Shown: positions 301-23,162 of the stretch, piece after piece | Numbering within the stretch: the stretch's first letter is position 1 | Layout of the letters: each line of letters begins with the position of its first letter | Assembly: GCA_965226525.1 (NCBI GenBank) | Contig: OZ245361.1 | Coordinates: 545,064 to 609,063 of the forward strand | Direction of reading: 5' to 3' | Source: Spiroplasma sp. | Lineage (GTDB): Bacteria; Bacillota_I; Bacilli_A; Mycoplasmatales; MT37 | DNA: 64,000 nt | The notes under the pieces: model-generated | Told to the model about the DNA's origin: nothing | Seen by the model: the letters and a program-made list of their open reading frames with translations, nothing else | The model's database searches: none | Made by a program: the position numbers and the translations under genes

Positions 301-327
301 TTGACAAAAAAAAAAAAAAAGTAAAAT
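301..327 (+). promoter_or_regulatory. Putative promoter with homopolymeric spacer, TTGAC-A15-G-TAAAAT (copy 1)
   Basis: TTGACA at 301-306, A run at 306-320, TAAAAT at 322-327, ATG at 337 (9-nt gap). Confidence 0.55.
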
Positions 328-336
328 GAAGGCACA

Positions 337-1923
337 ATGTTGAAAAAAGTCTTTGCTGTTTTTTCAGTTTTTATCTTCTTTGCCTTCTCAGGTTTGTTTG
401 TTTTTGCGAGTCCATCTTCTCCAGTTGTTTTCTCATCAGGAGGCTCTGCCTCTACTAATTTAGCAGCAGAAAAAATAGCTAAAATTGATCAGCTTTGATC
501 AGGAATCAAAAATGAAATAAAGAAGCCAGTATATTATTTTCTAACTGGAATCCCAATTAAAATTCCTGGTCGAGTTGGTAAATTTTATGACTTAGGACCT
601 TTATACAAAGCAGCGCAAAATGAACTTGCTACCTCTGGTTCTAGTCTGACAACTGAAGGTGCCAGAGAAAAACTTTTAGAACTGGTTAATGCTGGTTTAG
701 ATTCTGCAACAGTTAATTCTGCGCTTTCTTATGAAAAAGGATTTGGTTTTTATAATGATTCAGCAAACATTTGAAATTCTCTTTCCATTCAAGAATTAGT
801 AAAACCCAAATATACCCACTTAGGTAGAACCCAAATTACAATTGAAAGTAATGGAGAAATATTACATGAGGGTAGTCTAGAACCCTTGTTCAATGCTGCT
901 AGAAATCAAGGAGGCAAATTCTGATATGAACTGCCAACTGCTGCTAAAGACCTGCTTATTAGTTTGATTGATGTTCAGGTTAGTGGGGCGCATCTCAATT
1001 CTGCTTTAGCAAAAACAGCACTAGATCTTCTTTGATCAGAAATCAAATCTGAACTAAAGACAAAGTATGCTTATCTATCCAAAAATCTAATCCTAATCAA
1101 TGGTAATAACTATAACCTTGAACCCTTGTTTACTGCTGCCAAAAATGATGCCCAGTATGAAAAGAAAGGTTCTGAACTTTCTGTCCAGGCAAAAGACAAA
1201 CTCCAAGAATTAGTTAATGCTGTTGTTATTCCTCAAAAGCTTAAAGACGCTTTAGATGTTAAAAACAATGAAAAGTTAGATGCTTTCTGATCAGAAATTA
1301 AATCTGAACTGAAAAAACCAAACTATGCCTACTTAGTCAAAACTCCAATCCTAGTCAATGGTAATAACTACAACCTTGAACCCTTGTTTGTTGCTGTCAA
1401 AAATGAGTATCGTGTTTTAGGTTCACAACTCTCTGATCCAGCAAAAAATAAGTTACAGAGTTTAGTTAGTGCTGATGTTCAACACCCAATTTTTAAAAGC
1501 AGTTTAACAACAGCAAACACTCAAAACAACCAAAAATTAGATGACCTTTGAACCCAACTAAAAAAGATTCTTAACCAACCAGAATTTAGCAAATGAAAAG
1601 ATACTTCAATCAAGATTAAAAACAAAAGTTATGATCTTAAACTTTTGTTTGTTGCTGCCAAGGAAAATGCAGATGTTAAAGATTCTGCCTTGCCCTTGGA
1701 TGCCAAACTCCAACTTCAAGAATTACTCAATGATCAAGTTACTTCCAAAATGGTTGAAAACCAACTGCTTGCTCTCAACCAGGCAGAAGCGGAAAATAAT
1801 AAGCAAGCAAAAGAAAAACAACAACGTCAAGATTTAACCATTGGTTTAGCAACTGGCGGCAGTGTTTTAGTTGCTGCTGGTCTGAGTGGTTTTCTCTACT
1901 GGTTTTTTAAAATTAGAAAATAA
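337..1923 (+). CDS. Array surface-protein paralog, copy 1 (528 aa, code 4)
   Basis: Hand-translated without TAA/TAG. The N-terminus is MLKKVFAVFSVFIFFAFSGLFVFASPSS. ORF 1645..1923 is in frame (offset 1308). The C-terminus is ...TIGLATGGSVLVAAGLSGFLYWFFKIRK. Confidence 0.88.
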
Positions 1924-2071
1924 AGTTTTTAGGTACCTGTTTTGGTTGTTTAGTTTTTAAATTTTTTTATGGATCTCCTTTTCAAATAGTTTTAAACACT
2001 TAAGAAAATAAATAAATTTAATATTTTTTTAGTTTTTGAAAAAAAACATTTTGGTTTTTTGCCTGAGTTAC

Positions 2072-2097
2072 TTGACAAAAAAAAAAAAAAGTAAAAT
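2072..2097 (+). promoter_or_regulatory. Putative promoter TTGAC-A14-G-TAAAAT (copy 2)
   Basis: A run at 2077-2090. TAAAAT ends 9 nt before ATG 2107. Confidence 0.55.
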
Positions 2098-2106
2098 GAA
2101 GGCACA

Positions 2107-3687
2107 ATGTTGAAAAAAGTCTTTGCTGTTTTTCCAGTTTTTATCTTCTTTGCCTTCTCAGGTTTGTTTGTTTTTGCTAGTCCATCTTCTCCAGTTGTTT
2201 TCTCATCAGGAGGTTCTGCCTCTACTGATTTAGCAGCAGAAAAAATAGGTAAGATTAATCAGCTTTGATTAGGAATCAAAGATGAAATAAAGGATCCAAG
2301 ACTTTATTTTCTAATTGAAATCCCGACTGACATTCCTGCTCGAGGTGGTAAACTTTATAACTTAGGACCTTTATACAAAGCAGCACAAACTGAACTTGCT
2401 ACCTCTGGTTCTAGTCTGACAACTGAAGGTGCCAGAGAAAAACTTTTAGAACTGGTTAATGCTGGTTTAGATTCTGCAACAGTTAATTCTGCACTTTCTC
2501 AAGAAAGAGGATTTGGTTTTTCTGCTCGTTTACGAAACCTTTGAAGTATTCCTTTCGCTCAAGAATTAGTAAAACCCAAATATACTCACTTAGCTAAAAA
2601 CCCAATCTCAATCAAAAAAGAAGGAAAAGAAGTATATAAGGGCAGTTTAGAACCCTTGTTCAATGCTGCTAGAAATCACGGAGAAAGAACACCATGACAT
2701 AAACTGCCAACCTCTACCAAAGACCTGCTTATTAGGTTGGCTGATGTTCAGGTTTGAGATGAGGATTCCATTCCTGCTTTAGCAAAAACAGCACTAGATC
2801 TTCTTTGATCAGAAATCAAATCTGAACTAAAGACAAAGTATGCTTATCTATCCAAAAATCTAATCCTAATCAATGGTAATAACTATAACCTTGAACCCTT
2901 ATTTACTGCTGTCAAAAATGATGCCCAGTATGAAAAGAAAGGATCTGAACTTTCTGTCCAGGCAAAAGACAAACTCCAAGAGTTAGTTAATGATGTTGTT
3001 ATTTCTCAAAAACTTAAAGATGCTTTAGATGTTAAAAACAATGAAAAGTTAGATGCTTTCTGATCAGAAATTAAATCTGAACTGAAAAAACCAGATTATG
3101 CCTACTTAGTCAAAACTCCAATCCTAGTTAATGGTAATAACTACAATCTTGAACCTTTATTTATTGCTGTTAAAAATGAGTATGGTGTTTTAGGTTCACA
3201 ACTCTCTGATTCAGCAAAAAATAAGTTACAGAGTTTAGTTAGTGCTGATGTTCAACACCAAATTTTTAAAAATAGTTTAATAACAATAAACAACCAAAAA
3301 TTAGATGACCTTTGAACCCAACTAAAAAAGATTCTTAACCAACCAGAATTTAGCAAATGAAAAGATACTTCAATCAAAATTAAAAACAAAAGTTATGATC
3401 TTAAACTTTTATTTGCTGCTGCCAAGGAAAAAGGAGATGTTAAAGGTTCTGCCTTTTCCTTAGATGTCAAACTCCAACTCTGAGAATTACTCAATGATCA
3501 GGTTACTTTCAAAATGATTGAAAACCAACTGCTTGCTCTCAATCAGGCAGAAGCAGAAAAGAATCAGCAAGCAAAAGAAAAACAACAACGTCAAGATTTA
3601 ACCATTGGTTTAGCAACTGGTGGAGGTGTGTTAGTTGCTGCTGGTCTGGGTGGTTTTCTCTACTGGTTTTTTAAAATCAGAAAGTAA
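2107..3687 (+). CDS. Array surface-protein paralog, copy 2 (526 aa)
   Basis: Hand-translated end to end. The only in-frame stop-like codons are TGA, including a Q->W(TGA) at about 3481. It ends ...FLYWFFKIRK then TAA at 3685-3687. Confidence 0.88.
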
Positions 3688-21241: not shown

Positions 21242-21385
21242 AGAGTTTTTTGACTATCAATCTTTATTTTCCTTATTTTAAAAAAACTTGCTTATAGATT
21301 TTTTCTAAAGCATTTTTTGACTATTCAAAAGTGGACAAAATCAGTTGTTTCTTTCCTGGTTTTTTACTTCTTTTTTACCAATTAC

Positions 21386-21412
21386 TTGACAAAAAAAAAA
21401 AAAAAGTAAAAT
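21386..21412 (+). promoter_or_regulatory. Putative promoter TTGAC-A15-G-TAAAAT (copy 13)
   Basis: A run at 21391-21405. ATG at 21422. Confidence 0.55.
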
Positions 21413-21421
21413 GAAGGCACA

Positions 21422-22984
21422 ATGTTGAAAAAAGTCTTTGCTGTTTTTCCAGTTTTTATCTTCTTTGCCTTCTCAGGTTTGTTTGTTTTTGCCAGTCCAT
21501 CTTCTCCAGTTGTTTTCTCATCAGGAGGTTCTGCCTCTACTAATTTAGCAGCAGAAAAAATAGGTAAGATTAATCAGCTTTGATCAGAAATCAAAGATGA
21601 AATAAAGAAGCCAGAAAATTATTTTCTAACTAAAATCCCAGTTAAAATTCCTATTCAAACTGGTAAACTTTATGACTTAGAACCTTTATACAAAGCAGCA
21701 CAAACCGAACTTGCTACCTCTGGTTCTAGTCTGACAACTGAAGGTGCCAGAGAAAAACTTTTAGAACTGGTTGATGCTGGTGTAGATTCTGCAAAAGTTG
21801 ATTCTATGTTTTTTTATGAAGAAACAGTTGGTTTTTATAGTACTGTAGAAAGTCTTTGAAGTGGTCTTTTCATTCAAGAATTACTAAAACCCAAATATGC
21901 TCACTTAATCAGAGTTCCAATTATAATTGAAGATAGTAGTTATGACTTTGAACTACTTTATAATTCTGCTAGAAATCATGGAGAAAGAAAAGCATGATAT
22001 GAACTGCCAACCTCTGCTAAAGACCTGCTTATTGGGTTGGCTGATCATGTTGGAAGTGTGGATCTCAGACCTACTTTAGCAAAAACAGCACTAGATCTTC
22101 TTTGATCAGAAATCAAATCTGAACTAAAGACAAAATATGCTTATCTATCCAAAGCCCCTATTGGAATTGATGAAACAGACTATGACCTGGAACCCTTGTT
22201 TGCTGCTGCTAAAGATGATACTCAATATGCAAAGGAAGGTTCTGAACTTCCTGCCCAGGCAAAAGACAAACTCCAAGAGTTAGTTAATGATGTTGTTATT
22301 CCTCAAAAGTTTAAAGACGCTTTAGATGTTAAAAACAATGAAAAGTTAGATGCTTTCTGATCAGAAATTAAATCTGAACTGAAGAAACCAGATTATGCCT
22401 ACTTAGTCAAAACTCCAATCCTAGTCAAAGGTAATAACTACAATCTTGAACCCTTATTTGTTGCTGTCAAAAATGAGTATGGTGTTTTAGGTTCACAACT
22501 CTCTGATTCAGCAAAAAATAAGTTACAGAGTTTAGTTAGTGCTGATGTTCAACACCAAATTTTCAAAACTAGTTTAGTGACAATAAACAATCAAAAATTA
22601 GACAACCTTTGAAACCAACTAAAAAAGGTTTTTAACCAACCAGAATTTAGCAAATGAAAAGATACTTCAATCAAAATTAAAAACAAAAGTTATGATCTTA
22701 AACTTTTATTTGCTGCTGCCAAGGAAAAAGGAGATGTTAAAGGTTCTGCCTCTTCCTTGGATGTCAAACTCCAACTCCAAGAGTTAGTCAATGATCAGGT
22801 TACTTTCAAAATGATTGAAAACCAACTGCTTGCTCTCAATCAGGCAGAAGCAGAAAAGAATCAGCAAGCAAAAGAAAAACAACAACGTCAAGATTTAACC
22901 ATTGGTTTAGCAACTGGCGGAGGTGTGTTAGCTGCTGCTGGTTTGAGTGGTTTTCTCTACTGGTTTTTTAAAATTAGAAAATAA
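21422..22984 (+). CDS. Array surface-protein paralog, copy 13 (520 aa)
   Basis: ORF 22757..22984 is in frame (offset 1335). Modules 2-3 are divergent. Confidence 0.83.
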
Positions 22985-23135
22985 AGAGTTTTTTTGACTA
23001 TCAATCTTTATTTTCCTTATTTTTTTAAAAAAAACACTTGCTTATAGATTTTTTCTAAAGCATTTTTTGACTATTCAAAAGTGGACAAAATCAGTTGTTT
23101 CTTTCCTGATTTTTTGCTTCTTTTTCACCAATTAC

Positions 23136-23162
23136 TTGACAAAAAAAAAAAAAAAGTAAAAT
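23136..23162 (+). promoter_or_regulatory. Putative promoter TTGAC-A15-G-TAAAAT (copy 14)
   Basis: A run at 23141-23155. ATG at 23172. Confidence 0.55.

Follow-up and report, generated by a model that had tools for sequence, protein, structure and literature searches.

Is the run of A residues that separates the -35 and -10 boxes of every gene in a large tandem array of Spiroplasma sp. a switch, or is it a fixed part of the promoter? The array lies in a 64-kb stretch of contig OZ245361.1 (positions 545,064 to 609,063; hereafter the window, position 1 being its first letter), where 14 genes are each preceded by the pattern TTGAC-A(n)-G-TAAAAT, n being the number of A residues. A preliminary description of this DNA had proposed that the tract acts as a slipped-strand ON/OFF switch like the one of the vlp genes of Mycoplasma hyorhinis. 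The analysis reported here favors a vlp-like slipped-strand promoter switch, or volume control, acting on single copies, a reading to which we assign a probability of roughly 0.65.

Promoters with a poly(A) spacer

We found 14 matches to TTGAC-A(n)-G-TAAAAT in the window, all on the + strand, starting at the promoter coordinates listed in the next section and ending with a last site that stops at 23162. No match was obtained in 100 shuffles of the window sequence. Direct counting gave n = 15, 14, 15, 15, 16, 14, 14, 14, 15, 15, 15, 15, 15 and 15 for promoters 1 to 14, which reproduces exactly the counts of the preliminary description. As the first A of the tract is used by TTGACA, the spacer consists of n-1 A residues followed by G, and its length between the two hexamers equals n, as had also been claimed. 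In front of all 14 genes, TTGACA matches a -35 box at 6/6 positions and TAAAAT matches a -10 box at 5/6, with the homopolymer between the boxes and an ATG located 9 nucleotides (nt) downstream of TAAAAT. Each of these ATG codons opens an open reading frame (ORF) under genetic code table 4. The 14 tracts are the only homopolymers of at least 11 bases in the window, the next longest being an A10 at 39309. When the window was scanned with canonical 16-18-nt spacers, the promoter of copy 5 (n = 16) was the only one of the 14 to pass, with 11/12 hexamer matches.

The 14-fold repetition results from the tandem arrangement of the genes and does not represent 14 independent events; the informative feature is the conservation of the core against at least three upstream intergenic backgrounds. 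We extended the comparison to 61 family promoters, drawn from the window and from eight loci of ENA analysis ERZ25073755, which holds at least three co-occurring strains (coverage of ~208x, 183-194x and 78-92x). TTGACA, A(n-1)G and TAAAAT occur together in 55 of these 61 promoters, and the core is retained against three unrelated upstream intergenic types. In a footprint of 50 promoters representing 38 distinct flank haplotypes, the minor-allele fraction was 1% in TACTTGAC and 0% in GTAAAATGA, 24% at positions -45 to -9, 30% in a 7-nt stretch downstream of the -10 box and before the ATG, and 3% in the signal-peptide codons. A variable island flanked by conserved blocks is poorly explained by homogenization through gene conversion alone; therefore, selection seems to act on both hexamers.

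The remainder of the window provides a reference for these promoters. Most of its housekeeping genes have neither a Shine-Dalgarno sequence nor a -35 box, and several carry TATAAT only 7-12 nt before the ATG, indicating that leaders are ordinarily short or missing here and that a perfect -35 box is unusual. From these observations taken together we concluded that TAAAAT is probably the -10 box, that TTGACA is likely a genuine -35 box, unusual as this is in this genome, and that the messenger RNA (mRNA) would have little or no leader.

Variants of the promoter were also recovered. An insertion of GAAG or GAAAG between the A tract and the -10 box (at L001 3777, L089 12031, L090 21418 and L094 19872) produces spacers of 18-20 nt, and a subfamily of ~876-880 amino acids (aa) consistently shows a spacer of 18. 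Other variants have TAGAAT as the -10 box, or a mutated -35 box (TTGCCA or TGGACA). A scan of Joint Genome Institute (JGI) metagenomes for the promoter pattern returned four unrelated chance matches in which the N gap was not filled with A residues.

The same intergenic regions could be read differently, with the real promoter located farther upstream or replaced by read-through. The poly(A) would then be part of a transcribed 5' leader, with GAAGG or GAGGA as the Shine-Dalgarno sequence, and the tract would act on translation or on mRNA stability. Several stop codons are indeed followed by TTGACT-N18-TATTTT (9/12), for example at 159-188, 5282-5311, 10687-10716 and 12444-12473, GAAGG or GAGGA stands 4-5 nt ahead of the ATG in many copies, and strong terminators were not found between the genes. 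However, no other part of the core is as poorly conserved as the putative Shine-Dalgarno sequence, which falls inside the variable island and lacks its GG in the GAGAATGTG and GAAGACACA variants. Intergenic regions of types B and C keep the core without having TTGACT/TATTTT. Furthermore, the exact distance of 9 nt from the -10 box to the ATG is common to two species despite differing sequence, and the intergenic RNA is devoid of significant structure (z = -0.30). Given the variability of the putative site and its scarcity upstream of housekeeping genes, a Shine-Dalgarno sequence in a leader is unlikely, and we regard this explanation as a whole as very improbable. A structured RNA, riboswitch or terminator in the intergenic region was likewise considered and rejected, on the basis of the same folding score, the lack of any Rfam family in the array and the failure to find canonical terminators.

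The gene array and its proteins

An ORF scan with table 11 returned nothing over the first 24 kb of the window, while table 4 (TGA = Trp) revealed 14 tandem genes on the + strand. The code is thus of the Mollicutes type and, taken with a G+C content of ~32% and a source contig of 609 kb, points to a bacterium of that type. The genes encode proteins of 520-528 aa, except copy 3 (370 aa). Furthermore, nt 1-150 encode the C-terminus of another copy, which shows that the array extends past the left edge of the window. The features are as follows; promoters were located by pattern match and coding sequences as table-4 ORFs.

1..150, +: 3' end of the preceding (15th) family copy, last 49 codons and stop; frame 0 reads LNQAEAEKNQQAKEKQQRQDLTIGLATGGGVLVAAGLGGFLYWFFKIRK followed by the stop
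301..327, +: promoter 1, A15 tract at 306-320, spacer 15
337..1923, +: copy 1 coding sequence, 528 aa
2072..2097, +: promoter 2, A14, spacer 14, with a divergent type B intergenic region upstream
2107..3687, +: copy 2 coding sequence, 526 aa
4125..4151, +: promoter 3, A15, spacer 15, with a third intergenic type (473 nt) upstream; the L084 orthologue (17794) is also A15
4161..5273, +: copy 3 coding sequence, 370 aa, with fewer repeat modules
5419..5445, +: promoter 4, A15, spacer 15, with the variant -10-to-ATG linker GAGGATGTG; the L084 orthologue (19088) is A15
5455..7026, +: copy 4 coding sequence, 523 aa
7305..7332, +: promoter 5, A16, spacer 16
7342..8919, +: copy 5 coding sequence, 525 aa
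9069..9094, +: promoter 6, A14, spacer 14
9104..10678, +: copy 6 coding sequence, 524 aa, mosaic
10829..10854, +: promoter 7, A14, spacer 14
10864..12435, +: copy 7 coding sequence, 523 aa
12586..12611, +: promoter 8, A14, spacer 14
12621..14192, +: copy 8 coding sequence, 523 aa
14336..14362, +: promoter 9, A15, spacer 15
14372..15943, +: copy 9 coding sequence, 523 aa
16094..16120, +: promoter 10, A15, spacer 15; the near-identical locus L091 9971 is A14
16130..17713, +: copy 10 coding sequence, 527 aa
17862..17888, +: promoter 11, A15, spacer 15, with a type B intergenic region upstream
17898..19481, +: copy 11 coding sequence, 527 aa
19628..19654, +: promoter 12, A15, spacer 15
19664..21241, +: copy 12 coding sequence, 525 aa
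21386..21412, +: promoter 13, A15, spacer 15
21422..22984, +: copy 13 coding sequence, 520 aa
23136..23162, +: promoter 14, A15, spacer 15
23172..24758, +: copy 14 coding sequence, 528 aa, the last copy of the array; L091 and L095 hold syntenic array ends
24830..24905, +: tRNA-Arg(TCT), right-hand boundary of the array

Downstream of tRNA-Arg are the genes for trigger factor (24931), hisS, aspS, the atp operon and uvrBA. A tmRNA gene at 62834-63208 gave an Rfam match of 69.7 bits and was not reported by ARAGORN.

The encoded proteins consist of an N-terminal signal peptide without a lipobox, repeat modules, a charged stalk and a C-terminal transmembrane anchor. Window proteins contain three to four modules of ~90 aa each with the pattern LWxxIKxELKxxxYxxL…NYxLEPLF…GSxL…KLQxLV, and relatives range from 370 to ~3000 aa, that is, from 3 to ~20 modules. 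The stalk of copy 3 contains a 24-nt tandem repeat (5109-5163, 2.3 copies) encoding AEAEKNKQ; this unit is expanded many-fold in the 1467-aa relative P0135 and constitutes a second axis of size variation.

The preliminary description had considered the family unrelated to Vlp and non-lipoprotein, and our results agree. The first 40 residues are free of Cys in 13/14 copies; copy 11 has one Cys there, created by a single substitution of the G-to-C type and not placed in a lipobox. Neither Pfam-A nor NCBIfam contained a family matching with E < 0.02, and none reached its own cut-off. A profile search of 1.84 billion representative proteins retrieved 74 relatives, and all those that could be traced came from two uncultured genomes. 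The AlphaFold (AF2) model was of good confidence, with a predicted local distance difference test (pLDDT) score of 83, but gave no match below E = 0.4 in a fold search against the PDB. Homology to Vlp or to any other described variable-surface-protein family was thus not detected by Pfam-A, NCBIfam or the profile search, which did not include a direct alignment to Vlp, and no earlier description of this protein family was found in the literature.

The paralogs are mosaic. Copy 6 shows uninterrupted identity over 350 nt with copy 5, 342 nt with copy 12, 321 nt with copy 7 and 314 nt with copy 14, suggesting frequent gene conversion or recombination inside the array. Mean identity falls to 83% in a hypervariable segment (aligned nt 150-700), compared to 95% at the 5' end encoding the signal peptide. 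With their predicted surface topology, their size variation through repeat number, their hypervariable segment and their mosaicism, these proteins look like a family of variable surface antigens.

Tract length across strains and in a sister species

We examined how n varies among the 61 promoters. The tract is 15 A long in 41 of them (67%), 14 in 13 and 16 in 7, and it is never interrupted (0/61), though the adjoining non-coding DNA is 24-30% variable. When the GAA(A)G insertions are included, the spacers measure 15 (39 promoters), 14 (13), 16 (5), 18 (2), 19 (1) and 20 nt (1), and none measures 17; spacers within 16-18 nt occur in 7/61 promoters. To compare the same site in different strains, we used 11 locus pairs with flanks at least 96% identical: n was equal in 9/11 and different in 2/11. 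One differing pair, the window tract at 16099 (A15) and L091 9971 (A14), has flanks that are 100% and 99.5% identical. Conversely, an A16 was kept at one locus in the independently assembled contigs of two strains (L084 21114 and L091 2630). As the tract differs where flanks are identical, yet most pairs agree, it evolves faster than its flanks without consensus lengths being scrambled.

All of these lengths are taken from consensus sequences, and homopolymers of 14 bases or more are miscalled by long-read and older short-read chemistries. Some of the differences may therefore be homopolymer consensus errors, and in the extreme case the true tract would have a single length everywhere. The distribution of A14 calls gives this some substance, with 3/6 in L091 (91x), 4/6 in L095 (78x) and 4/14 in the window, compared to 1/26 in the 183-208x contigs (L001, L084 and L089). 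Either the strains differ in modal tract length, or the A14 excess in the 78-92x contigs and the window is a consensus artefact related to coverage. However, coverage alone is not predictive, since all four tracts of L090 (92x) are 15 A long, and the shared A16 was reproduced in two independent contigs. Slippage also does occur in this DNA, as the shorter T and A runs described below differ in length among copies. We consider it improbable that every difference is artefactual, an explanation that is compatible with the other readings in any case; even if it were correct, the promoter architecture and the evidence from the sister species would hold.

The common intergenic type contains a second length-variable homopolymer pair, CCTT(A/G)-T(4-7)-A(6-8)-C, in which a T run abuts an A run (window positions 180-198, 5303-5319, 8949-8968, 10708-10728, 12465-12485, 14222-14237, 15973-15993, 19511-19527, 21271-21287 and 23015-23035). 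The forms T4A6, T4A7, T6GA6, T7A7 and T7A8 are found among the copies, indicating that slippage indels accumulate in the intergenic regions of the array. Elsewhere in the window species, T15-T16 tracts of the form TTTG-T(n)-GG were found at three places: one precedes the first promoter of an array by 312 nt (L084 9658), another precedes a degenerate family promoter by 145 nt (L082 5598), and the third directly follows the stop codon of a thioredoxin gene (L082 19624). A divergent family member with the signal peptide MKNIMVLTVKKIVVFFFF... carries TGTTGGAGTTGT-A16-GTAGTAGAATG (L089 7684-7699; L090 8303-8318). This A16 adjoins a -10-like TAGAAT and lacks a good TTGACA; at L090 8303-8318 the gene caller reads through it, so that the tract might be coding there.

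The most distant family members were found in a sister species, represented by a 675,536-bp circular contig of ENA analysis ERZ25067557 (L092 and L093). We did not find a third species with the family, the one candidate (P0175) belonging to this same 675-kb genome. The family genes of the sister species show TATAAT-N9-ATG, the same geometry as in the window, but they lack TTGACA, and the run in the spacer is only A5-7. Between the two species compared, a -35 box therefore occurs in the family only where the spacer is homopolymeric. Downstream of a homologous signal peptide (MKKIFLTLSLLLFAFPILSLVNFH), the sister-species genes carry a G10 or G11 tract within the ORF. At its assembled length this tract is out of frame in 11/11 genes examined, and a single-base change is enough to reopen the frame in 10 of the 11, yielding ORFs that span 152-1362 aa (596-1362 aa in nine cases). 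By its sequence, the poly(G) is a textbook translational contingency switch that would be OFF in the consensus. The family thus appears to be under simple-sequence-repeat control in both species, and this contrast is the strongest indirect support for reading the window tract as a switch.

Repeats of the sister species also occur outside the position just after the signal peptide. A G10 located mid-gene in a family member (L092 2640-2649) is out of frame, which would cost the protein its C-terminal anchor, and a C9 lies in frame ~155 nt into a 917-aa family gene (L092 11982-11990). In both species, DNA methylase and restriction or anti-restriction genes (DNA_methylase, HinfI, N6_N4_Mtase, GmrSD_N) adjoin family arrays (L089 616-1617; L093 1-3692).

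Switch, volume control or fixed spacer

Promoter repeats of this kind are best known from the vlp genes of M. hyorhinis, which carry a poly(A) tract in the promoter (Citti & Wise 1995, as summarized in PMC10502178 and PMC2268961); vlp, maa2 and vmm are all switched ON and OFF by indels in the promoter spacer (PMC2268961, PMC10502178). The window array resembles vlp in that an A tract separates the two promoter boxes in every member, in the clustering of a multigene family with one promoter per gene in a Mollicute host, and in the predicted surface proteins, which vary in size through internal repeats. It differs in that the proteins lack a lipobox Cys, have a C-terminal transmembrane anchor and show no detectable relation to described families; there are at least 15 copies in the window array and 61 sampled promoters versus 3-7 vlp genes. 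Expression of vlp is reportedly ON at a spacer of 17 and OFF when the spacer is longer, whereas the window tracts, at 14-16, remain below this canonical length. Functionally the system would be of vlp design, yet, with neither lipobox nor detectable homology, it is apparently not the Vlp protein family.

Other systems share parts of this design. In maa2 of Mycoplasma arthritidis and vmm of M. mycoides, spacer indels turn transcription ON and OFF (PMC2268961), the vmm repeat being made of TA dinucleotides (PMC10502178); the repeat lies in the promoter spacer as in the window, but these are single genes and not a large tandem family. In Neisseria meningitidis porA, with its poly(G), and Haemophilus influenzae hifA/hifB, with (TA)n, the length of the spacer repeat sets the transcript level and one unit matters (PMC3899988). 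Although these are single Gram-negative loci with other repeat units and unrelated proteins, the graded volume control of porA may be a better analogy for spacers of 14, 15 and 16 nt. The BspA-like genes of Candidatus (Ca.) Mycoplasma girerdii carry coding repeats, with few genes ON and most OFF as documented from metagenomic reads (PMC5476646). They parallel the sister species, where the repeat is also just inside the ORF, the consensus is OFF and a one-unit change would give ON; they differ from the window species, whose genes have no coding repeat and carry the repeat in the promoter, and the families and repeat types are distinct.

Where transcription starts, how it depends on n, which length counts as ON, how fast the tract switches and whether the genes act independently all belong to a model that we infer as follows. 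Each paralog would be driven by its own sigma-70-type promoter, the whole spacer of which is a hypermutable poly(A), with transcription most likely starting a few bases before the ATG and yielding a leaderless or near-leaderless mRNA. Slipped-strand mispairing at replication would add or remove single A residues and thereby shift the spacer length. With both hexamers apparently needed, this length should set promoter strength, such that the 14-15-nt spacers of the majority would be weak or OFF and those of 16-18 nt stronger or ON. Few paralogs would then be well expressed in a given cell, the expressed set would change stochastically and heritably, and the outcome would be phase or volume variation of size-variable, mosaic surface proteins. 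The 7/61 spacers at 16-18 nt fit a pattern of few ON and most OFF, as expected for the consensus of a contingency family.

Several points weigh against this model. No spacer measures 17 nt, and the tight distribution of n around 15 could equally mean that stabilizing selection maintains a working A-tract spacer of 15 nt. The nine locus pairs with equal n and the A16 common to two strains show consensus lengths to be reasonably stable, and the concentration of A14 in the lower-coverage contigs and the window assembly is a possible homopolymer artefact. The -35 box is often dispensable for Mollicute promoters, and if this were so here, the length of the spacer would have little effect. Canonical terminators were not found between the array genes. 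In the common intergenic type, the stop codon is overlapped by a weak A/U-rich hairpin, GAAAAUAAAGAG...CUUUAUUUUC (dG ~ -8.3 kcal/mol), with CUUAUUUU after it (e.g., 14165-14230); this hairpin may be a weak intrinsic terminator. As it is the only candidate and, with its U tail, is absent after copies 1, 4 and 10, read-through could blur independent control. Finally, the promoter poly(T) of M. agalactiae vpma, a homopolymer that directly precedes the -10 box in the promoter of a variable surface protein of another Mollicute, was experimentally shown not to switch, this role being played by Xer1 inversion (PMC2268961). Position alone is thus no proof of switching.

The tract could accordingly be a fixed structural element, a rigid spacer of ~15 bp acting through protein binding or curvature in promoters that are constitutive for all paralogs, with selection holding n at 15 and changes of one base being slightly deleterious or neutral. 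The mode of 15 in every strain, the narrow range, the agreement of most locus pairs and the inert vpma tract would all be expected under such an arrangement. A-tract DNA is moreover overwound, at ~10.0 bp per turn, which would place the rotational optimum at a shorter spacer than in mixed sequence. However, we know of no characterized sigma-70-type promoter for which 14-15 nt does not lie far below the optimum. An A15 is also intrinsically unstable in bacteria without mismatch repair, and a constitutive promoter would be expected to avoid it. Furthermore, the sister species drives homologous genes with short A runs and no -35 box, implying that the long A tract is dispensable for expression, and its use of a different repeat points to selection for switchability. 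The length differences between loci with identical flanks also argue against a fixed element. On balance, we consider this explanation unlikely, although it is a stronger candidate than a purely artefactual origin of the differences.

We consequently retain the slipped-strand switch or volume control as the preferred explanation, in a form that departs in part from the preliminary description. The vlp-type anatomy, the hexamer footprint, the length differences among paralogs and strains and the coding poly(G) of the sister species all speak for the proposed switch; a strict ON/OFF mode is less well supported, since the spacers of 14-16 nt never reach the canonical 17, and the system may be graded.

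Going further, we tentatively propose, at slightly less than even odds, that the two sister lineages control the same surface family by different simple-sequence switches located ~100 bp apart. One would be transcriptional, with a poly(A) spacer and a newly acquired perfect -35 box, and the other translational, with a poly(G) after the signal peptide and a promoter without a -35 box. The pair would represent a natural replacement of one type of switch by another. In this proposal, the sub-canonical spacers of 14-16 nt would suggest either graded volume control or a geometry of RNA polymerase on the A tract with an optimum below 17.

The trick is thus known from vlp, and the gene family is new. 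A large share of a ~0.6-Mb genome is spent on this family, with at least 15 tandem copies here and further arrays elsewhere. Gene callers miss or truncate such genes because of TGA = Trp and out-of-frame G tracts, and the tracts may be miscalled by assemblers; therefore, families of this type are under-reported in metagenome-assembled genomes. Homologous genes that carry poly(A) in the promoter in one species and poly(G) in the coding region in the other offer a rare chance to study the origin and replacement of contingency switches, and the same species pair allows the co-evolution of the -35 box and the homopolymeric spacer to be probed in bacteria whose promoters normally lack a -35 box. 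If the tracts switch, a huge combinatorial repertoire of surface proteins could be displayed from one locus, and the vlp paradigm would reach beyond lipoproteins and cultured pathogens.

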